From assembly GCA_022813865.1 (NCBI GenBank), contig JALDZX010000012.1, positions 124,001-188,000 of the forward strand: 64,000 nucleotides of DNA. Direction: 5' to 3'. The stretch comes from Xylographa opegraphella. Lineage: Eukaryota. Positions within the stretch are counted from its first letter, which is position 1; the number at the start of each line of letters is the position of its first letter. Below, piece after piece: positions 25,711 to 64,000 of the stretch. Made by a program: the position numbers and the translations under genes. Under the pieces are notes generated by a model. It was given only the letters and a program-made list of their open reading frames with translations. It was not told the origin of the DNA and ran no database searches.

Positions 25711-27012
25711 ATTTCTTTAAAGTAGCCATGCGAAAATGTCCATTTGATTGATGGGCTTTATCTCTAAGTAGCGGTCACTTGTGGTATGCACTTTTGTAAA
25801 CAACCGAAGACGCAAGCAAGGGATATAGCCAATTGACATTCCACCCGATCAGACCTGTATTATTGTTGCATCCGCTCTCTGATTCTCCGTGCTCCCTCTC
25901 TATCTCCAGCTCCTCAAGCCAATACCTTTTCCCTCGACTGCTGCCGTTCACTCCTCTCCGAGCTCTTTGCGCAATTGTATCATAGTAGCTTCCAGGTCAT
26001 CAACCCGCTCGCGCCATGCTCATTAACAATCTCGATCATCTCGTCGGTGGCGGCGGCAGTATCACGCTTCTCATTTTCGATGGTGACGGCCTTGTCCCCT
26101 TCTCTTCTGATAGTGTGGTCCGGTCCCTCTCTTTTTGGATGCAGGGGCTTCTGTCCTCGTCTCCATTGATGGCGGCGGCCTTGTCACTCTATGGAAAGAA
26201 CGATACCCATACAGGATGTATCAAGATATAGCCATTCCGATAGGTCTTTGGTATGTGTTAGAGGGTCGTCCTTTTGAGATGAAGAACACACGTTGATCTT
26301 GAATAACGTGTGAGCAATTGGAACTCATGGAAGTGAAGATTGTAAAGAATGCAAGCTACAAAAGTTAAAGCGTTGGGTCACACTAAGTTTCTTCGTATCT
26401 TCATGTAAACCTGGAGCTTGAGAAGATCAAACAAAACAGTTGCAGAAAGTATACGTGGTGGATCCAAAGCCACCAATGTCCTGACTCGCCTGATTGTACT
26501 CCGTAGCCTCGCAGATGCAGACAAATTGAGAGATGCGTGCTGGAGACTCTGGAGCTTTCAGTACCTGTAAAACGCGGGGAAGCGGCGGAAATATCTCCGC
26601 ATGACACTAGACTAAGGTAGGATGTCCTAGACAAGGGTAAGGTTCCTTAGGCAGCATTTGGCCGAGCTCTTCAAGTTTCCCCGATGCGGCAACCTTCATC
26701 ACGTCACTCCCAGCTTCTCAACTGACTGAAGGCCTCCAACGATGTAGTGGGATGTTCGAGCAGTGGTACATAGAGAGGAATGCCTTCATAAATTACGATC
26801 GGATTCCTTCTATTGTAAAGCTTAGCAATGCGAGGTCATTGGAGAATGACGGTCATGATTTACACTGTTGGCAAATGGCTGGCTTCCTATTGACTGGAAG
26901 TCACTTGCGGGACGCGGTCAGATGATCTCATTGTCTTATGTGAATCGCAGTACTTCGTACGTTCGTGCCACACTCTACTCTTTGCTGAAGACTTCTACCC
27001 GTCAAGAAAAGA

Positions 27013-28776
27013 ATGAACTTTCTGCTGACTCGTACTTCCCTGTGCACTCATAAATCATCGTGTACTTTTACTGCTGCTATCCGTGTCTTTACCCACAATC
27101 CATCTCCAAAAGCCTTCCAAGCACACCGCTCCGCAATGGCAACTATGTCCCAGCCCCAGCATTTTATGAATACATCTGGAGAGCTCGATGCCGTCTGGAT
27201 TCACAAAGAACCATATTCTAATCGGCCTCACTTCTCAAAATTGAACAAGGACATCAAGGTTGACGTCTGCGTGATTGGAGCTGGGATTGCCGGCGTCTCC
27301 ACGGCTTATGAGCTAGTTTCACGCGGCCTGAAGGTCGCCATGATTGAAGCACGAGAGGTTCTGTCAGGTGAGACAGGAAGGACAAGTGGGCATCTTTCCA
27401 GTGCCCTAGACGCAAGCTATGTCGACATAGCGAAGAAGCATGGTAAGGACGCTGCGAAGAATGCGGCATCGAGTCATCAATGGGCTCTCAAGCACGTTGG
27501 TGAAATCTCCAAGCAGCTAGGCATCGAGTGCGAATACAAGGTGATTCCTGACTACGAGATCTCCCAGTATGAGAAATCAGACCCCAAGCATGAGGACGAA
27601 ATGAAAGAGATTCAAGAGGACCTCAAGATGGCGAAAGAACTGGGACTGCCTGTGTCATACAAACCAGACTATGCCATCAAAGGATGGGATGGCAAGGTCG
27701 ACCAGAGAGATGTTGGTATCTACGAAGAGCAAGCGACCTTCCATCCGACAATGTATTTGGTCGGTCTCTTGAAGTGGCTTGCTAAGCAGCCCAACTTCGA
27801 ATGCTATACGCACACGAGGATGTTGAACATCGAAGAGAAGGGACTCCTGACCACCAAAGAGGTGCAGGTTAGCACTTTAGATGGCAACACAATCACTTGC
27901 AATGATGCTGTCGAGGCTACTTGCATCCCTCTCCAAAAGCTGAGCATCGTTGCTCAGATGGAGTACTTCCGCACTTACTGCATTGCCATTCGAATCCCTA
28001 GAGACAGCTACGAGGATTGCCTCATCAACGACCAAGCCGACCCTTACCATTATATCCGTTTCACAGGTTGCGACGATAAGGACGATTACCTGGTGATTGG
28101 TGGCGGAGATCACAAGGTTGGACAAGAGGAGGAAGCCGGAAGGTTCGCTGAGCTTGAATCGTGGGTTAGGAAAAGATATACACAGGCAGGATCCGTTGAC
28201 TACAAATGGTCCGGGCAAGTCAACGATTCCGTCGACCTCATGCACTTCGTTGGCCTCAACCAAGGAAAGAGCCACACCTATGTGATCACTGGTGATACTG
28301 GCCACGGTCTGACGATGGGTGTCCTTGCTGGTAAGCTGGTTGCAGACGAGATTCAAGGCATCGAGAACCCATGGAGCTCTGCTTACAATCCGAAACGTCT
28401 ACCCCCCCTCTCATCCATCCCCAGCATGGTCGCTCATGACGTCCAAATCAACATGCAGTACAAACGCTTCGCCCAGAGCGACATACCGGATATCGAGAGT
28501 CTGGCAATTGGCGAAGGAGGTATTCTGAACCCGAAAACGAAGAAGCCTCTCGCGGTTTACAAGGACGATCAGGGCAAGGTGCATCAATTCTCGGCGCTGT
28601 GCCCGCATTTGCAGGGCGTGGTATGCTGGAACAAGACAGAGAAAAGCTGGGATTGTCCGATTCACGGAAGTCGGTTCAGCAAGGATGGCGTGCAGATTAT
28701 GGGGCCTTCGAAGGCGGGCTTGTCGCCGGCAGATGAGAATGGCGAGGCGGCGCAGCAACAGGCAATCAAGGCCTAA
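27013..28776 (+). CDS. FAD-dependent oxidoreductase (DAO family) with C-terminal Rieske [2Fe-2S] domain, YhfW-like; intronless
   Basis: DVCVIGAGIAG FAD-binding motif, SGETGRTSGHL, ITGDTGHGLT; Rieske ligands CPHL..CPIHGS. Alternative start at 27136. Confidence 0.9.
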   Translation: MNFLLTRTSLCTHKSSCTFTAAIRVFTHNPSPKAFQAHRSAMATMSQPQHFMNTSGELDAVWIHKEPYSNRPHFSKLNKDIKVDVCVIGAGIAGVSTAYELVSRGLKVAMIEAREVLSGETGRTSGHLSSALDASYVDIAKKHGKDAAKNAASSHQWALKHVGEISKQLGIECEYKVIPDYEISQYEKSDPKHEDEMKEIQEDLKMAKELGLPVSYKPDYAIKGWDGKVDQRDVGIYEEQATFHPTMYLVGLLKWLAKQPNFECYTHTRMLNIEEKGLLTTKEVQVSTLDGNTITCNDAVEATCIPLQKLSIVAQMEYFRTYCIAIRIPRDSYEDCLINDQADPYHYIRFTGCDDKDDYLVIGGGDHKVGQEEEAGRFAELESWVRKRYTQAGSVDYKWSGQVNDSVDLMHFVGLNQGKSHTYVITGDTGHGLTMGVLAGKLVADEIQGIENPWSSAYNPKRLPPLSSIPSMVAHDVQINMQYKRFAQSDIPDIESLAIGEGGILNPKTKKPLAVYKDDQGKVHQFSALCPHLQGVVCWNKTEKSWDCPIHGSRFSKDGVQIMGPSKAGLSPADENGEAAQQQAIKA

Positions 28777-30581: not shown

Positions 30582-33500
30582 TCAACCCATCCGATCCAAC
30601 CTGCCCAGCACGCGCTTCTTCTCCCTCTCCCTCACCAAGACACTAACCGCCCTCTCGAAATCGACACTGTTGCCACTATCCGTCTCCGCCAACGCGCGCT
30701 TGGCCCTCCCCTCCTCGAAGCCCATGGCCGTGAGCCGCTCGACGGCGACATCGACGGGGTCGCGTACCTGCGGGCCGCTAGGCACGGGCGCGGGCGCGGT
30801 GGTGGGTGGCTTGTCGTGGCTGCGCTCGCTGGCGGCGGAGGAGGAGGCGAAGGACTCCTGGGACGCGTTGACGCGTGCGGCGGTGGTGGTGGTGCGGGAG
30901 GATCTTTTGGCGGGGGAGGTGAGGGGCGAGGAGGAGGTGGAGGTGGAGGTGGGTTTGAGTTTCGATTTCGGGGTCGAGGAAGGGAGGGAGACTTTGGGGC
31001 GGCGCAGGGAGAGGCGGGCGGCGAGGGAGGGCAGTTTGGGCACCGGGGGCGCGGCGGTGGTGGCGTCCGAGGTGGCGAGGGCGTCGAGGCGCGCGAGCAC
31101 CTCCGGGTAGTTGCTCATGGGCCGCTCGTCCGAGACGGGCACGTCCTTGTAGGCCGGGTCCTTGCGCTTGGCTCGGATCTCGGCCGCGTGCGCGGCGCAG
31201 CGCTGGCGGGCGAGGAGGGTGGCATCGGGGGAGTGGGGCGCCGAGGGTTGGGGCGCCGAGGCTACTTGGGGAAGGGTGGAGAAGACGGAGCGGGAGGATG
31301 ACGGTGGAGACGGGCGCTGGAGGGACATTTTCTCCTCATACACGCGCGACACGGCTTCTTTGAGGAAGGTGGAGTGCGAGGAGCCGTGCATGGGCGGTGT
31401 CCAGATCGTGTAGCCGGCGGAGCGGGCGGTGGCGAAGGTGTCGCTCGTGGGGGAGGTAGGCGCGTGCACGGAGAGGACGGTGGCGGGCGCGAGGGTGAGG
31501 AGGTGGTAGGTCCATTCCTCTGGTAGGGGAGGTTAGCACGAAAGAGCGGACAATGGTGGACAACTGTCTTGCTTACCGATGGCGGCGTTTTCCCGCTCGA
31601 TATCGCCAGGGGCGATGTTTGCCCCGGCGAAAATGCCATATTCCCGAGCTTGGTCCCGTTTCCCTTGGTAGCCTCGGACCAGAACTCCGAGACACGTCCA
31701 GATTTCCGTCATATCGTATAGCTCCTCCGTGGTCAGCCCATTTCTGTTGCCCCTTGCAAATCCTGCAGGCGGGTTGAACAGCACGCTGTTCATGGCGATC
31801 CCGTCATTGAAAGCCAGAGTATTGGTGTCGGTGCTTTGCTGCTTCGCCAGAATGCCCCCCCTCAACCAATCCATCTGTCCAACGATATCGTCTTCCCGGC
31901 CCCTTCCACAACCGAATATTTTGCAGAAGGTCCAGACACGCCAGAATGCATCGTCTATAAACGGGGACCTGGCCGTTTCCCCCGCCAACCCGGAGATTGT
32001 TTCTACCCGGAGGAATGATTTACAGTGGTCGAGTATCATGCTTTTGAGTTCCACCATGGTAAGCAGATCTCTGGTATAATGCCTCAGGTATAAGCTAGGT
32101 TTGTAGTCTGTTGCTCCGCTCTCCATCTCGGCGAATGGTATGCTCACTTCGCGGAGTTCCCACGCAGCCGGCGACATACACCACAGAGCGTTCTTGATCA
32201 GCGAAAGCTCGTGTCGCTTGAAGGTCCGGTAAAATCCTCTGCTGACTTCTGCCGCGGCAAAAAGATCCTTCAGGTTCTCGAGACTTTGGAGGATTCGTAG
32301 GAGAACGCGCTCAGCAGCGTCAGCCGAAATGAGCTGTTCGACTTCCTCAGGTGTCATCGATGGTCTGTTCTTGCCCTCCGATGTTGGGATCGAAGCATAC
32401 AAGTCAGGGATTTCAGACATTGCAAGCGATGCCAATGACCGGCACTTCACCGATCGTTGGGAGTGTAAGGAACGGCCAGCGACTGAAGCTGTGGTAGAAG
32501 TTGGTGACAGTTCGTCCTTGCGACCTCGACGCTCGAGTGGGTGAACGTCGCTCTCTGTTGGAGAGACCATTGCTGGAGGCTGTGGACTTGGCGCCGCAGC
32601 AAGCTCAACCGGTAGCGGTCGCGAAGTGTCTGCGAGTTCGACAGGTGAAGGAGCTCGATTACCTTCGAGTTCCGCAATATGTATTGGATGTTGTATTTGT
32701 TGAGATTTTAATGGTATTCGAGGTATGTCGTTGGCGAAGCTATTTTGCTTTAAGATGAGTAGTTTTTCGTTCGAACGGGAAGCGTTCCGTTGGTGAAAAG
32801 CGAGAAAGGTAAGGGATGGATCGTCTTTGGGACTCAAGAGCTCTAGTCTTTTGCGAACCTCTTCGAAATGTGCGTCAGGGATACTCGATTGTTCGGATTC
32901 TGCTTCGGGACTTTCATCCCCGGACATGACCGGGCTGGTGGAGTTTGTGTAATTCTGCGGGGATTCCTTTGAGCTCCAGATGGATTCGTAACTAGCTTGT
33001 CGTTCCATCCTCGGTGGTGTAGCAGTGTTATTTCTGCCGAGGATCCTATTAGCCTTACTGCTTGACCCACCCACCGCCGTTGACGCTCTTCTCGTATGCC
33101 CTTCTCCGGATCGCATTTGTGTGATAACATGATTGCTGCTCGCAGAACGCATCATAATCCTCCGTCGCGGCTCATGTCTATCCTGCTTATCCTCCAATGG
33201 GGATGCAGTCCGAGGTGGAGGTGGCGGAGCAGGTGCTCTTCGTGATGGTTCCATGCGCATGGGCCCACGACTGATTTGTAGTGGATCTCTGCCTGAAGCG
33301 ACAATGACGGACTGATTGGGAGAATCTTCCTTGATGGTGTCCAACTGACTTTCCAAGGCCAGGGTGACTTGACTGAGGGTGGGTGTGGAGTTGTTGGCAT
33401 ACGAGTAAGATGGTTGGTTATGCGACGGAATGTTTCTCTGGAAGGCATCGTCAAGAGCATCCAAATCCTTAGGCGTGTATTTGGATCTGAGGATCGTGGA

Positions 33501-34916
33501 TGCTTTGGAAGGTCGCCGCGACAAATTCAAGGCGCTGACTGGAGACTCCCCGTTGAAGTTCTGCGGAGGTGGGGCTCGCTGTCGCATTGTCATTGTGCTC
33601 GATCGCGATGGCGACAGGCCTGAGAAGTTCAACGGTCGTACATTTGCCTGACCTGGTTCGGGCGGTAAAGGTTTGTTCTTGTTCGCGGTGCTGAAGTTGC
33701 TGCGCAGAGAAGCAGTACTCGCCTTGTCCTTGAGAGTTCTCGAAGGGGAATTAGCCAACGAGGTGTTGCTCTTCATGTTCGTCGGTATCCTGGGCGCTAA
33801 ATTGCCAGCGCCCGGAGCTGACACCGGATGGGGAACGCTAGGAGCTCGATCCTCGGGAGGCTTGGGTAGTCCTGTCTCTGAATTCATGCTTGACATGGAG
33901 GAACTCGGACTATGGCAAGAGTGTGGTGATTTTCCGTCCTGTTCACTGGCATCGGCGGATGAGTTCGATGTTGCCGATTTCGTTGCTGGCGGCGACGTCT
34001 GCGGCATGCCGGCGGTCATGCCTTCGAGTGACAGCGCAGAGAACGGCCTCCTTGGTTTCGGCATTTCCACAACGGAAAGCGGCGACACGATGGAGAGTTG
34101 AGCGGTGGCCACGCCGTTAAAAGGCTTGTTTGGGCGAGTGGTGGTGGATGTTGATGGGGGTGAGATGGTGCTCGGAGTTCCGAACAGCTGATTGTTCTTC
34201 GTCGGAATACTGACAATCGTGGCACCGGTCGCTTGCGACTTGCTGATGGGGATTGATACTTGCAGCTCTGGTCGTCTGTCCTTGGCAAATTGTATGGGCA
34301 CATCCATTTCCTCGTCCGATTCCGGCGGCGTCATTGGATTCCCCATCTCAGCCGTGTGTATTCTACCATTCTCCTCAGTCGCCCCTGTCTTTTCCATCGT
34401 GATCCCGAATGCTTTTTGTAAGAAATCGTGGTCGAAAAGATCTTGGTTGGTGGTGGTGTCGATGCGATACTCCGGTAGACCTTGAAATGGATCACTTGCT
34501 TTCGTCGCAACCTCGGCCGCGAAAGCTTCCTCCACATGCTCACTCCCTGTTGACGGTCGTCGTGAACTTCCAGACACAACGATCAGATCGTCGACGGTAG
34601 CCACTAGCCGGACGGGTTGCTTAACATTCCCCAATGTAACTTCGGTCGGTGCCGCATTGACGCCTTGCATTGACGTCGAAGATTCCCCACTCTTGTCCTT
34701 CCGGTGGAAGCTTCTCATTTTCCCAGTCTTCAAGAAGGATCGGGTTGAGAGGAGAGAGGCTTGCATGTTCGACGGTGCTGAAGTCGCCGTACACGCTGGC
34801 TTGTTGGGCTTGGGTGGATGACCGACCAACCTTAGAAGATCTTTTCTCAGGGTGCTGTTACTGCGGTCGATACCAGACCCTAAACTCTGGAAGGTTAGGG
34901 GAGTTTGAGAGGCCAT
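30582..34916 (-). CDS. Large, mostly disordered protein with an F-box-like motif and a C-terminal UBA domain, at least 2 exons
   Basis: ORFs 31533-35018 and 30582-31469 are joined by intron 31520-31576 (GTAAGC..CTAAC..CAG, giving AIEEWTYHLL). F-box-like AAERVLLRILQSLENLKDLFAAAEVSRGFY; UBA VERLTAMGFEEGRAKRAL..FERAVSVL. The start codon is uncertain. Confidence 0.75.
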
Positions 34917-36241
34917 GAAACCGTGCTCGTAAGGCGAATCGTTCTGTTCCAGCGGAAATTGGTGGTCTAATAATGTTGGCGGCGCAGCGTCAGCATGAGG
35001 CACATCGCAGCCGGCCACGCAAATCGACCGGACTATGTAAAGGAGCCGATACCTCGGGGATCACGAAATGATCTTGCTCAATTACTCACGTTCGCGTTTG
35101 CGGTACGATTGCGGTAGTCTATCAATTGCTCTGTGCCATCAAGGCCGTGGCTGGTCTGGACGCGAGATCGGAGATTTCATCCATTCTTCTGGGCTCAGTC
35201 ATGGTGGAGCTTCCAACATGCCAACAAGCATATGCGATGATTCAGGACCGGTGAGTATCAGTGAGCGGGGAGGCAAGAAAAAGCTCGTTGGAGAGTGTCA
35301 AGTAGAATGCTACGGAATGTGCAGCGCTGAACAGCGGGCACCTGACTACGCCAGTGTTATCAGTTGCGACAGATGGCTGGTGAGAAGCGCAGATCTGAGC
35401 TTTGGCCGTTTGGCCTCTGTCGCATCGATCCTCGTAAAGTAATGAAACATGCCGACCACATGGGGGGGGTGTGGGAAAGCCTGGCGGGAATGTCGTAGTC
35501 CTGCAGGACTAAGAGCAGGCTACCAGGCACATCCGCCCAGTCAGAGAGCGGTGCTTTGCGGCAAAGCCGCCACTCGACGCTCATCTCGCTGCTGACTGGC
35601 TGAGCAGATGGGTTCGAGAGGCAGGATTGGGAAAAGGCCGTCGGTGTCGGGGTGGCTGTTGAAAGCGATGGTGAGCGGCACGCAAAACCTTGGAAAGGTC
35701 TGGCGTGAGAACGAGCCGGAAAGCCGACGAATTCGCTGTGGTACGTACGGAGGTACTGGTGTACAACAACCACTAAGCATCGGTGGCTGTCCTTTTCGCA
35801 CCAATCGCCCGCGCGACAGGCTTTGGATTATCGAGAAGATCAATTACTGTATTGTTGCTCCTGCTGGGCCAGAATTGGGGCTGAGAAGGTACCGACAATT
35901 CAAGCATAAATTCAACAGCGAGCGGGACTTCCGTCCGGAGTAATAAGCTTGTCTCTGATCCCGCCATCGCTCTCAAGTAGTAGGTACAGAGCAGCATACC
36001 GACTCTCACTTTCACTGTATCCTTCTCGACGTCTTCCATGCGCAACGGGTGCAGCGGTTAGCCAGGGAGTAAAACGTTGTTCGCATGGCCATCCACGCTT
36101 CGGGGCGGCTTTCGGAGCGGAGAGAAAGGTTCAGCAGCCAGCGATTGCGGGCAGGTCATCAATTGCCGAGCAAGAAGACCACGGCTTAAGCAGGAACGGT
36201 ATGAGTAAGGTAGTGTAGATGGTAGTGCATGCATTAGCTCG

Positions 36242-59889: not shown

Positions 59890-60807
59890 CTACTTGCCCT
59901 TCCCGACGTGCTCCTCTACCCACTCAGCTATACTTGTCGCCTTTCTCCCTAGCAGCCACTCCAATACATTCGGGCTCCCTACCAAACCTCTCCGATTGTA
60001 GTACAATAGCATCCTCTCCGCTGCGTCCCTTGTGTAAGGATCCTCCTCCGAGCCTCCAGACATCATCTTCATAAATCCGTCAGTTGCTTCTTGCAGTCCC
60101 ACCTGCTCGACCACCACCTCCTTCCCTATCTTCTGCCCCACAATCCTCATAACCTCATTATAGGTTACCGGCCCCGTCCCACAGATCTCATAACTCGCAC
60201 TGTAATGCTTTGCCCCCTGCCGTAGCACTTTAGCCCCAGCTTCTCCAAAGTCCTTTAGCGCCACGAAGCTGAATCCCACGCTAGGATCCCATTTCACCGG
60301 GAACACCACCTTGTCTCCCTGCTCCAGGGCCAACTCTACAGCGGGTATCATCTCCATGAAATGCGTGGGTTGCAGAATCGTGTAAGGCACCCCGCTTTCC
60401 AGAAGAGCTTCCTCAACGTACCGCTTGCAGTCATGGTTGAGCATCTTACGGATGGAAGAGTGCAGAACGCTGCTGTAAATGAAATGACGGAAGCGACCAT
60501 TGCGGGTGTGACGTTCTGCCGAAGCGGCATACACAAGCGCAAGGCCAATGGTTGTTTCAAAGGGGTGGAAGGGGGGCCCAATGTGATAAAGCGCAGTGGC
60601 ATTGTGGAGGATTGAAGCGCAAAAGGAAGGAGAGCAGAGATCTCCTACAAGAACTTCGGCCGCGGGATATGCAGAGCGGAGGCGATCAGCGGAAGATCCG
60701 GAATGGCAGATCAGACGGAGCGAAAGAGATGGAGGGAGGAAGGGCAGGAGCTGCGAGGCTTGTTTGCCGCTGGCACTGGTGATGACAAGGAGGTCTGATA
60801 GTGATAT
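59890..60807 (-). CDS. NmrA-like NAD(P)-binding protein; the apparent start codon is ATA, so it may be a pseudogene
   Basis: Open frame ISLSDLLVITSASGKQASQLL..AEVLVGDL..LYHIGPPFHPFETTIG..HFIYSSVLH..KRYVEEALLESGVPYTILQPTHFME. No in-frame ATG precedes the Rossmann motif. Confidence 0.75.
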   Translation of the reverse strand: MSLSDLLVITSASGKQASQLLPFLPPSLSLRLICHSGSSADRLRSAYPAAEVLVGDLCSPSFCASILHNATALYHIGPPFHPFETTIGLALVYAASAERHTRNGRFRHFIYSSVLHSSIRKMLNHDCKRYVEEALLESGVPYTILQPTHFMEMIPAVELALEQGDKVVFPVKWDPSVGFSFVALKDFGEAGAKVLRQGAKHYSASYEICGTGPVTYNEVMRIVGQKIGKEVVVEQVGLQEATDGFMKMMSGGSEEDPYTRDAAERMLLYYNRRGLVGSPNVLEWLLGRKATSIAEWVEEHVGKGK

Positions 60808-61398
60808 GCTGGGAACTCAGATGGTCGTCGCTGATTTACTGGTGTTACTGACCGCAAGTGGAAAAGCATACGAGGGAGTCAGCCATATATGGGCAACTTC
60901 GGTCGTCAGCAATTAAATCGATCATCAAAGCGGAGTGTCACGTCATCTTGACACGGTCAGTCCACGCTTCGACCAAGCGCATCATCCGATCGGAGTAGAG
61001 CCGAAATCGTCGTCCTCACATTAGGTTCTCAGTATGCAGCGAGAGAGGTCTTTAGCTGTGGCCAGCGGTGTGGTTCACAATTTGCCTCGCTCCAATGAAG
61101 TATGGAGCTGCAGAGCACCAACAGCGACCGCCAAGCTCAGTTTTTCTTCATGCTTTACTCCGTACGAGACTTGGGATAGTCGAAAGTATGAAGCATTTAC
61201 ACCACCTTTTGGACGATGCTCCATTTTTGAGTTGTAAATTTATAATTAGGAGGCTCAATAATTCTTGCTTGCAATTGCTCTAGAAAGTCTATATGCCCCA
61301 ATCCACTCCTCATTCCAGATCGGTGTCCATCTTCTCACAAGCGCCGAACTCCTTGATCATCTACGCTCGGGTAAAAGAATCGTGTCGATATCAATATA

Positions 61399-62629
61399 TC
61401 AGCGGAACCTATCGGCGAAATTGGTAGGTGCCTGTGTGGACGGCCCATCAGGGGTAACGTATGCCTTGATATACTATAAGTACCTGTCACGGTGGAGAGT
61501 ATCGAAAACCAAACCTTGGTCATGCCACCATCAACGATGAAATCCTGTCCATTAATAAAACTACTCTCATCGCTAGCGAGAAACAGTACGGCGTAAGCCT
61601 GTTCGATAGCTTCGCCAAAGCGGCCAGAAGGAAAGTGGATTTCGCGGCGATGTCTCTTGGCAGCATCATCTCCCAGCCAGTCCTGCAGTAGGGGCGTACT
61701 ACGTTCTCTGTCAGCTCTGAAAATTTGGAATGTCAAGGAGTCTTAGGTATTCTCACTTTAAGGGTGCTGGGCACAGTGCATTGAACCTAAAACCCTCCCG
61801 TGCATGTACGATCGCCAATTCTCTCGTCAAGGCAAGAACCGCGCCCTTGCTCGCCGTGTACGCTAGCTGAGGAGTTGCACTACCGACCAGAGCGACTACA
61901 CTTGCCGTGTTGATGATACTACCTTTCGTCTTCTTGTGCTTCCTCATACTGAGGACGGCATGCTTACTACCGAACCAGACCCCCTTCACATTGATGTTAT
62001 GGGTGAGATCCCAAATTTTTTCTGGGGTGTCTATAGCATCAGCATCATCGGCATGCATAATGCCAGCGTTATTGAAGATGATGTCAACCCCGCCCCATGA
62101 ATCCACGTGAGCTACCATAGCAGCGATGTCCCCCTCTTTAGAAACATCACACTTGATAGTTTCAAGACGAGCATGATATGGAATGATTTCATGGATTCTG
62201 GCGGTTGCTTTGCTCAAGGCAGTTTCTGAAATATCCGCCATCAGGACCGAAGCTCCCTCACGTAGGAAGAGAATGGTGGTCTCGAGACCAATGCCACTAT
62301 GAAAGCAAGGATATTCAGACTTTGGCAAGAAAGGGTAACTCGGTGAAGGACTACTTTAGATAACGCGCAAACCAGAGTTGAAAGCACAAACGCAGAAAGC
62401 TCGACAAGTGAATGATAAGAGTTTCGCAGTTGAACTATTAGAGCCGAGAAGCATGCGGCCAGCAACAACGTATGGCATGAAAATTTGCATAGATTTTCGT
62501 AACAGACATGGGCATCCAGATGAGTGATCAACGAGCACGAGAACGATAATCAGGACTCACTTACCCAGCTGCTCCAGTAATGATTGCATTCTTGCCTTCT
62601 AGTCGACCTTCACGACCAATGCTACCCAT
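61399..62629 (-). CDS. Short-chain dehydrogenase/reductase, 4 exons
   Basis: TGAAG|GIG across intron 62297-62564; NNAG; IINTAS; YTASK catalytic motif; [33 protein letters not shown]; last exon [11 protein letters not shown]. Confidence 0.92.
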
Positions 62630-63371
62630 GGTGAATATCTTCTTGAAACAAAGAAGAGCCTCGGGTAGGAAATGGATGCTGGCGCTCGAGACGGGAGACG
62701 GGGAAAGACGAAGACGAGAGGTAAAAAGATGAAGCGGAAGGGAGATGTAATCCCTTGCTTGAAGACAAAAGTAGGACTGAAAGCTCACTTTTACTTGAGT
62801 ATCTGCTTGTTGAAAGCCGAGGAGGTTACAAGAAAATTCAGCGAGGACAGCTTTGTTGTTTGGTCGTGCGTGTCATCGTGCTATTGCGGGAGCATTCCCC
62901 TGGTAGTCGCTCCGTTATCGTCACCCGGTTAGTCACCGCCATGCTCCGAAAGCGTTGCTTGGCGCTTCTGGAGCTTAGTAGGTATGATCGGCACATGGAG
63001 CTCCTGAAGGTACGGAGTACTGAGCGGTGACAACTACATCAATAATTCAGCGCAGTATCTTCATTGTAAAGCATTCCAAAGCATAGTCAGCTCGAATAGT
63101 ATTGCACAAGAAAGAAAGACGATCACCTTGGAAGGACTTGGCTCGGCGTTTGGAGTTTCCCCGCCCGTAAACTAACTAGGACCTAATCAGATTCAGTAAC
63201 TGCTATCACTAACTGTCGAATCGCCTACGCGTGAAGTCTTAATTGAGTTCGGCGGAACGCAGACCCTCTTGTTTGTAAGGTCGTACATTGAAGTCATTTA
63301 GCTCTGAAAGGTCGCCTAGCGACTCAGGCTTCTCTTTCGTAGTTTCTTCTGATAGGACATCGCCTCCTGTT

Positions 63372-64000
63372 ATGGCACTTTCTAAAGGTCCAACTTCGAG
63401 CGAAATCACTACGGAATCTCTACCAGATCTTCTCGAGGATGACAGCAAAGTAAAACTTGGAGGCTTCGACATTGATGGCATCATCCGCGGCAAACTCATC
63501 TCCAAGAAAAAGTTTCTGTCAGTCGCCAAGGATGGCTTCGGCTTCTGTTCGGTCATCTTTGGCTGGGACATGCATGACCAGACATATTTCAAAGAGCTGA
63601 AAATTAGCAATAAGGAGAACGGCTATCATGATATCATCGCAATCCCAGATCTGAGCAGCTTCAGGAGGATTCCCTGGGAGGACGATGTACCCTTCTTTCT
63701 TGTCAGCTTCTTCGATCCTGACACTCATGAGCCTGTCAGCGCTTGTCCAAGGGGACTACTGAAAACGGCAATGGAAAAGTTGGAAAAACAGGGTCTAAGC
63801 GCAATGGCTGGCGGTGCGTGTCATAGGCCAGCCTAAATATTTATGGAGACTTGAGCTAACAAGCAATCTATCATAGCTGAGTACGAATTCTTCCAATTCC
63901 GCGTACCGACAGACACGCATATTCCCATCTCCGAACGTAATTCGTCTGCTACGGCGAAATTTCTCAAGGAGCATCCCGTGGACAGTCTTCCAGCTTTGAC
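63372..64000 (+). CDS. Glutamine-synthetase-like gamma-glutamyl ligase (GlnA4/FluG C-terminal-like), truncated by the window edge
   Basis: DIDGIIRGK, GFGFCSVIFGWDMHD, NGYHDI.AIPDLSSFRRIPW, CPRGLL; intron 63814-63877, then AEYEFFQF. Confidence 0.88.

Follow-up and report, generated by a model that had tools for sequence, protein, structure and literature searches.

The subject of this report is a pair of divergently transcribed genes at the right end of a 64,000-nucleotide stretch of the Xylographa opegraphella genome (GenBank assembly GCA_022813865.1, contig JALDZX010000012.1, positions 124,001 to 188,000 of the forward strand), called the window throughout. A gene for a short-chain dehydrogenase/reductase (SDR) lies on the minus strand, at 61399-62629, and the first part of a gene for a glutamine synthetase (GS)-like ligase on the plus strand, from 63372 onwards; their start codons are separated by 742 bp. 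The remainder of the window, a chromosomal segment of a lichen-forming ascomycete whose proteins best match those of Xylographa species, is occupied by housekeeping genes, coding for POP1, a histone deacetylase, a chitin synthase and others. An initial annotation, made without database searches, had already recognized the two genes as lying head to head, some 740 bp apart, and both were found in place.

The SDR gene is interrupted by three GT..AG introns of 268, 58 and 50 nt, the second bounded by GTGAGA and ACGTAG, the third by GTTTGG and ATCAAG (Table 1); the stop codon ends at position 61399. The spliced product is identical to the Xylographa carneopallida protein MMC34_005250 (P0121) at 274 of 284 positions, the part encoded by exon 2 being 97% identical, and removal of intron 2 restores the motif string quoted in the initial annotation (..NALCPAP.NTPLL..). 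All classical SDR motifs are present, TGAAGGIG spanning exons 1 and 2 and NNAG, ..NTASV.. (with the Ser) and YTASK in exon 2, and the Pfam models matched are adh_short_C2 and adh_short. An Asp follows strand beta2 (..LMADIS..). In SDRs, an Asp at this site signals NAD+ use, hence an oxidative role, and both may therefore be predicted for the fungal enzyme.

Of the ligase, the window contains 188 out of about 483 residues (39%), 171 of which match the 483-residue Xylographa proteins P0003 and P0002; statements on the catalytic domain rest on this 91%-identical ortholog. Exon 1 is 70-91% identical to PF00120 proteins of about 485 residues found across Pezizomycotina, and its best PDB matches are 5dm3, 8wwu and 11zs. 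Pfam returns no match for the N-terminal 147 residues alone, and the family was assigned via orthologs and PDB matches. As a separate observation, Pezizomycotina ligases feature an insertion of about 13 residues (..SPISERNSSATAKF..) right after the EYEF motif, at P0003 residues ~160-185, corresponding to window positions ~63910-64000; it is absent in Glomeromycota and in bacterial relatives (alignment A3, columns 186-205).

Table 1. Positions of the SDR-ligase pair, its parts and three further features within the window
Feature	Position	Strand	Remarks
SDR, whole gene	complement join(62629..62565, 62296..61757, 61698..61515, 61464..61399)	-	four exons, 284 residues plus stop
SDR exon 1	62565..62629	-	start of TGxxxGxG dinucleotide-binding motif; donor GTAAGT
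SDR exon 2	61757..62296	-	GIGLE...NALCPAPL; Asp (..LMADIS..), NNAG, Ser, YxxxK; Pfam adh_short 1.2e-35, adh_short_C2 8.5e-39
SDR exon 3	61515..61698	-	last base of N202 codon to K263; C-terminal part of substrate loop, ..DGGMTK end of Rossmann fold
SDR exon 4	61399..61464	-	A264-R284 plus TGA stop at 61401-61399; tblastn with P0121
Divergent intergenic region	62630..63371	.	742 bp; presumed shared promoter
Ligase exon 1	63372..63813	+	residues 1-147 plus one base; N-terminal beta-grasp domain with FGWDMHD motif
Ligase intron 1	63814..63876	+	63 nt, GTGCGT...CTAAC...TCATAG
Ligase exon 2 (cut by window edge)	63877..64000	+	AEYEFFQF...; its two Glu are E149 and E151 of P0003, invariant in alignments A2 and A3
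NmrA-like gene	59893..60816	-	NAD(P)-binding; immediately left of the SDR
Oxidoreductase reading frame	26989..28773	+	one long open reading frame
Long open frame	31536..35060	-	1175 residues

Conservation of the pair was evaluated in a scan of metagenome contigs, for which 14 aligned fungal ligase orthologs served as the query. The scan produced 80 fungal loci, corresponding to 59 non-redundant groups, of which 34, with 2.3 kb or more of sequence preceding the ligase gene, are informative for linkage. An SDR ortholog, 61-83% identical, lies beside the ligase in 29 of these 34 groups: the two genes are divergent in 25 (0.5-2.6 kb apart) and co-directional in 4 (0.4-6.9 kb apart). Classified by the nearest named ligase, the linked loci are Leotiomycetes-, Dothideomycetes-, Sordariomycetes- and Lecanoromycetes-like; the pair itself is present, and mostly linked, in Lecanoromycetes-, Eurotiomycetes-, Dothideomycetes-, Leotiomycetes- and Sordariomycetes-like loci. 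Among named species, SDR and ligase carry consecutive locus tags in X. carneopallida, Sarea resinae and Emergomyces africanus, while in Lecanoromycetidae sp. Uapishka_2 they are located on one 20-kb contig; linkage is found in all four species for which the same assembly appears in both protein match lists.

Beyond the pair, genes are unrelated between loci, as judged from a Pfam scan of flanking open reading frames (the first 150 of 228 frames picked from 23 long loci, covering 15 loci in full and a sixteenth in part). Neither the NmrA-like gene nor the chitin synthase of the window was found beside the pair in any of the 59 groups. The two genes have been kept together while their surroundings, and sometimes their own orientation, changed, and the conserved linkage supposed at the outset is confirmed. 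In the window's intergenic region, 3 HGATAR sites are found against 2.5 expected; over 26 orthologous regions 171 sites are counted, where mononucleotide shuffles would lead one to expect 105.7, in intervals that include SDR exon 1 and intron 1. These counts give at most a weak hint that the pair is under the control of a GATA factor.

The SDR was classified by comparison with 18,950 NCBIfam models, 205 of which match. The best is NF004713/PRK06057, with 270.7 bits, followed by a model scoring 207.5. NF004713/PRK06057 is found over its cut-off in 30 of 201 Actinomycetota genomes sampled, and in each of the 20 loci fetched a GS-like gene is located 1.3-2.2 kb away, on the same strand. Pfam analysis reveals the layout ligase-ALDH-SDR in one of these loci, where ALDH stands for aldehyde dehydrogenase, and ligase-peptidase C26-ALDH-SDR in another (L214). 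In the latter, the cluster (L214:5441-9406) is followed by genes for a pyridoxal-phosphate-dependent enzyme and two glycine-cleavage P-proteins, consistent with glycine being the end product. With the fungal SDR as query, the same places were matched in 50 of the 201 genomes at 42-55% identity, a tally that counts three genomes flagged as unpublished, whose loci were not fetched.

Among 17 further Actinomycetota loci, 15 contain a ligase, both misses being contig ends. Close relatives of the SDR are rare in other phyla: the only one found in 301 Pseudomonadota genomes is head to head with a GS-like gene, and the three found in 251 Bacteroidota genomes, 49-58% identical, all belong to ligase-SDR-ALDH clusters, two of which carry a homolog of an ethanolamine permease. 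Overall, a GS-like ligase is found within ~6.5 kb of the closest bacterial SDR relatives (41-58% identity) in 39 of 41 loci (Actinomycetota 20/20 and 15/17, Pseudomonadota 1/1, Bacteroidota 3/3). In a tree of SDR sequences, 8 fungal and 38 bacterial ligase-linked rows form a single clade, with SH-aLRT support of 99, to the exclusion of 11 other SDRs, and the fungal branch is nested inside the bacterial sequences. The initial annotation had placed this SDR in the subfamily of the Streptomyces coelicolor GlnA4 cluster; model, neighbourhood and tree all agree with that placement.

NCBI names the NF004713/PRK06057 family '3-oxoacyl-ACP reductase'. This name is probably wrong, because all 20 fetched members lie in GS-like ligase/ALDH clusters; the comparison gives the bacterial family a likely role as gamma-glutamyl amino-alcohol dehydrogenase.

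One explanation for the persistence of the fungal pair is that the genes are functionally unrelated and owe their adjacency to a compact bidirectional promoter, or to the slow decay of an ancestral order. Head-to-head pairs can indeed persist for regulatory reasons, no SDR was found within 10 kb of the ligase in 5 of the 34 informative groups (L009, L015, L035, L045, L074), and source annotations call the SDR a glucose/ribitol dehydrogenase or a levodione reductase. We regard this explanation as improbable: the linkage has outlasted changes in orientation and spacing, as in the four same-strand cases, while all other neighbours changed, and in three bacterial phyla the same SDR clade is, independently, associated with GS-like ligases, for which no accident of promoter arrangement in fungi would account.

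The ligase orthologs P0002 and P0003 carry a single Pfam domain, Gln-synt_C (PF00120; 2e-81 on P0003), and the best solved relatives are the GS-like chains 11zs and 5dm3 (~1e-41). In alignments A3 and A2, which comprise 11 and 32 relatives, the residues E149, E151, E227, H283, H285, R345, R363, E383 and R385 (P0003 numbering) are invariant; of these metal, ATP and glutamate ligand positions, E149 and E151 are the only ones located within the window. The flap sequence is ..lvpgyeap.. in 4lnf and 7tdp, chains of true GS, and ..lvenfwap.. in P0003, where a Trp (W351) takes the place of Glu. The same substitution is described for PA5508, and as typical of gamma-glutamyl ligases and FluG (PMC6478659). 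We infer from these features that the ligase is not a true GS, and belongs to the gamma-glutamyl-amine ligase type. The initial description of a GSI-like enzyme devoid of the FluG N-terminal amidohydrolase domain proved correct, no such domain being found in the 742 bp upstream of the ligase or in its orthologs, and can be extended, as the ligase also lacks the flap Glu needed by ammonia-using enzymes.

Source annotations do name these proteins 'glutamine synthetase' or 'Type-1 glutamine synthetase 2', and TIGR00653, the type I GS model, is the top NCBIfam match. A true type I GS, providing a second route of ammonium assimilation next to an incidental SDR, is nevertheless a very remote prospect. 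The TIGR00653 score is 214.8 bits, far below the cut-off of 429.15, and the ligase also falls well below the cut-off of the type III GS model; the flap Glu is replaced; and the nearest bacterial relatives are found in amine-catabolic operons rather than in glnA contexts. Moreover, fungi make glutamine with GSII enzymes (PMC8229676).

The descent of the ligase differs from that of its partner. The protein is 26-31% identical to the SDR-linked, GlnA4-type ligases, and in a quick LG+G4 tree 23 of the latter split from the fungal ligases and their closest bacterial relatives with SH-aLRT support of 97. The fungal ligase, initially described as GlnA4-like, is thus not so by descent, and its sequence places it in a sister clade. 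The label 'GlnA4-type' is used here on the basis of cluster layout, for clusters that match the one drawn in PMC6529630.

The closest prokaryotic relatives, at 39-45% identity, come from Bacteroidota, Burkholderiales, Bdellovibrionota, Waddlia, Turneriella and others. Six of their 14 annotated loci contain the full series permease, ligase, iron-containing alcohol dehydrogenase (Fe-ADH), peptidase C26 and ALDH; five contain a partial operon and three do not match. The permease exceeds the cut-off of TIGR00908, 'ethanolamine permease', in all four cases tested. We found no paper naming this operon type. As a single variant, a fungal-like ligase of Mucilaginibacter (L090:8113-9847) is found without the Fe-ADH operon, preceded by a gene resembling gamma-glutamyl cyclotransferase (GGACT, PF06094) and by a second, short GS-like reading frame.

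Members of the ligase family were found in Glomeromycota, Mortierellomycota, Mucoromycota, Chytridiomycota, Zoopagomycota, Basidiomycota and some Saccharomycotina, a pan-fungal distribution which indicates an old fungal gene rather than a part of a recently transferred operon. The initial suggestion that a bacterial operon has been kept as a fungal cluster does not hold in that form: the two genes correspond to different operon types. Together they look like a hybrid of the two, in which an SDR stands in the place of the iron dehydrogenase. Judged by the refutations that it named itself, the initial reading nevertheless stands, with the SDR inside the ligase-linked clade, the linkage conserved and the ligase devoid of a residue needed by enzymes that use ammonia.

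Several known systems share parts of this arrangement. In the Puu pathway of E. coli, putrescine is glutamylated by the ligase PuuA, a flavin oxidase performs the oxidation, and PuuD is a C26 hydrolase. Glutamylation of the amine before its oxidation is common to this pathway and to the scheme considered here, but the fungal locus features an SDR instead of a flavin oxidase, and the gamma-glutamylputrescine synthetase model NF045547 matches the ligase weakly (163.9 bits, with a cut-off of 650). The solved relative 5dm3, a Chromohalobacter protein reported to be part of an ethanolamine pathway, is more distant from the fungal ligase than those of the Fe-ADH operons. In the Fe-ADH operons of Bacteroidota, Burkholderiales, Bdellovibrionota, Waddlia and others, the ligase belongs to the same clade as the fungal one and is likewise followed by an alcohol dehydrogenase, which, however, is an Fe-ADH and not an SDR.

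GlnA4 clusters resemble the fungal pair in that a gamma-glutamyl-amine ligase adjoins an SDR of the same clade (41-55% identity) and in the proposed order of reactions, ligation followed by oxidation. They differ from it in the ligase, which belongs to the other major clade, and in being co-directional operons with ALDH and, often, C26, regulator and permease genes, none of which is present at the fungal locus. In S. coelicolor the ethanolamine cluster SCO1610-SCO1615 is laid out as orf2 (SDR), orf3 (ALDH) and then glnA4, as reported in PMC6529630. A cluster of Phaeobacter sp. MED193, whose proteins are induced on phosphatidylethanolamine, is reported to encode ethanolamine gamma-glutamylase, gamma-glutamylethanolamide dehydrogenase, aldehyde dehydrogenase and gamma-glutamylglycine amidohydrolase (PMC10132767). 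It is likened to the fungal pair by this pathway description, as the same four-step glutamylation route; unlike those of the pair, its genes form a bacterial operon that includes a TRAP transporter. Finally, Aspergillus nidulans FluG contains a GSI-like gamma-glutamyl ligase domain with Trp for the flap Glu (PMC6478659), located, as in plant NodGS, behind an N-terminal amidohydrolase domain, while the ligase of the pair starts at the GS beta-grasp domain and consists, over its ~483 residues, of PF00120 only.

A coupled function of ligase and dehydrogenase, whatever the exact substrate, is likely, because the nearest bacterial kin of the ligase are flanked by an ethanolamine permease and an alcohol dehydrogenase, and those of the SDR adjoin an ALDH and a gamma-glutamyl ligase of another type. 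Both bacterial settings follow the published logic of glutamylation, in which an amine is converted to its gamma-glutamyl amide, then to an aldehyde and a gamma-glutamyl amino acid, and at last to the free amino acid and glutamate. The leading explanation, to which we give about even odds, is that the two fungal enzymes catalyse the initial pair of reactions in such a route, acting on ethanolamine or a closely similar small amino alcohol. In such a route, the GS-like protein would join glutamate to the amine in an ATP-dependent reaction, producing gamma-glutamyl-ethanolamide, the hydroxyl of which would be oxidized to an aldehyde by the SDR, of the classical, NAD-type kind. The aldehyde would then be converted to gamma-glutamylglycine and finally to glycine and glutamate, in most fungi by the products of unlinked genes. 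Ethanolamine is our single best guess for the substrate, and we hold this guess with about even confidence. More tentatively, filamentous ascomycetes, and perhaps fungi generally, might possess a hybrid route of ethanolamine glutamylation made of an ancient ligase, an SDR of the GlnA4-cluster type in place of the Fe-ADH and, in some lineages, a Cys-type enzyme of the dienelactone-hydrolase family in place of C26.

A number of observations weigh against the ethanolamine route. A cluster for it would cover five functions (ligase, dehydrogenase, ALDH, gamma-glutamyl hydrolase and transporter), and only the first two are carried by the window. The initial annotation had predicted an ALDH nearby, probably beyond the right edge; in the orthologous loci an ALDH is found in only 3 of 59 groups (3 of 80 loci), and this expectation is not supported. 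Peptidase C26 was detected in none of the 80 fungal loci, nor was an ethanolamine permease seen in the annotation of their flanks. No fungal-like SDR was found near any of the 80 closest bacterial ligase loci, so that there is no direct bacterial model for the pairing, and ligase and SDR trace to different types of operon. The SDR score of 270.7 bits falls below the PRK06057 equivalog cut-off of 404. The SDR tree is a quick LG+G4 one, with an outgroup of 11 rows and three Bacteroidota sequences left out, and two of its rows labelled as ligase-linked (L225 and L226) lie on truncated contigs with no ligase. To these are to be added the five informative fungal groups without a linked SDR, and the unusually high conservation of both proteins between classes (70-91% for the ligase, 81-97% for the SDR), which would be no less compatible with a core role than with optional catabolism. 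As to the bacterial counterpart, the ligase step has been demonstrated for S. coelicolor GlnA4, and the SDR step, like the rest of that route, is a prediction even in bacteria, according to PMC6529630. A Magnaporthe mutant of 'MoGLN3' (MGG_02538), possibly a member of this ligase family, has no growth or virulence defect, according to PMC8229676.

Some of the same observations would be accounted for if the pair performed the same glutamylate-then-oxidize chemistry on another substrate, or to another purpose, which we consider possible though somewhat doubtful. The substrate might be a secondary amino alcohol, such as 1-amino-2-propanol, whose oxidation would give a ketone and make an ALDH unneeded. 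Alternatively, the reactions might serve to detoxify phospholipid head-group amines or to keep their levels in balance, or might yield a gamma-glutamyl metabolite or signal, as proposed for FluG, a fungal GS-like ligase with a non-nutritional role (PMC6478659). Such a view would fit the lack of linked ALDH, hydrolase and permease genes in most fungal loci, and a core function is suggested by the very high conservation and by the pan-fungal ligase; the gene that recurs downstream of the ligase, described below, belongs, moreover, to the dienelactone-hydrolase family and is not a C26 amidase. On the other hand, every bacterial context found for both protein clades includes an ALDH, which points to an aldehyde intermediate and thus to a primary alcohol. 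The transporters, where present, are either the ethanolamine-permease equivalog or its 61%-identical homolog, a further point against this view.

Of the 28 groups with at least 2 kb of DNA on the downstream side of the ligase, 7 (L017, L033, L045, L052, L058, L059, L074) carry there, at a distance of 0.5-5 kb, a dienelactone-hydrolase-family gene (PF01738, with the Cys in a GMCWGG motif); in L052, the nearest lichen-like locus, the distance is about 1 kb. In gene models of Teloschistales (P0057, P0059) a domain of this family is fused to the ligase. In lichen-like lineages, and in some Dothideomycete-like ones, the gene possibly belongs to the module as its third member; that its product is the missing hydrolase is a speculation.

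The three ALDH genes mentioned above (L038:5478-7129, L048:34-999 and L050:5704-7399, all on the minus strand) flank the pair in a single Dothideomycete-like lineage. Those of L038 and L050 are 82% identical. In L038 and L048 the gene is found on the SDR side of the pair, in L050 on the ligase side, indicating that the trio stayed linked through a rearrangement. In a further locus, and as a single case, a gene for phosphatidylserine decarboxylase (L041:7384-8337, plus strand) is located directly upstream of a tandem SDR-ligase pair; the product of this enzyme is phosphatidylethanolamine.

Phosphatidylethanolamine, from which ethanolamine is set free, ranks among the very abundant lipids of membranes. 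To our knowledge, the way in which fungi break down or buffer ethanolamine is unsettled, amine oxidases being the usual candidates. The glutamylation chemistry is known in bacteria, and its conserved fungal hybrid version is new to the open-access literature searched, in which the route was found in bacterial papers only; the initial annotation, too, knew of no biochemical demonstration in fungi. If the proposed function is correct, the pair would represent the first pathway of gamma-glutamyl amine catabolism in a eukaryote, and would provide a function for two very highly conserved orphan genes of many pathogens and model fungi. It would also illustrate how, within an otherwise conserved pathway logic, an iron alcohol dehydrogenase can be replaced by a non-orthologous enzyme, an SDR. 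The comparative evidence makes the gene pair a directly testable two-enzyme hypothesis.

Two further features of the window lie away from the pair. In the reading frame at 26989-28773, an FAD-dependent oxidoreductase (DAO) domain is joined to a Rieske [2Fe-2S] domain at the C-terminus, and the 1175-residue frame at 31536-35060 has no Pfam match at E<=1e-5.

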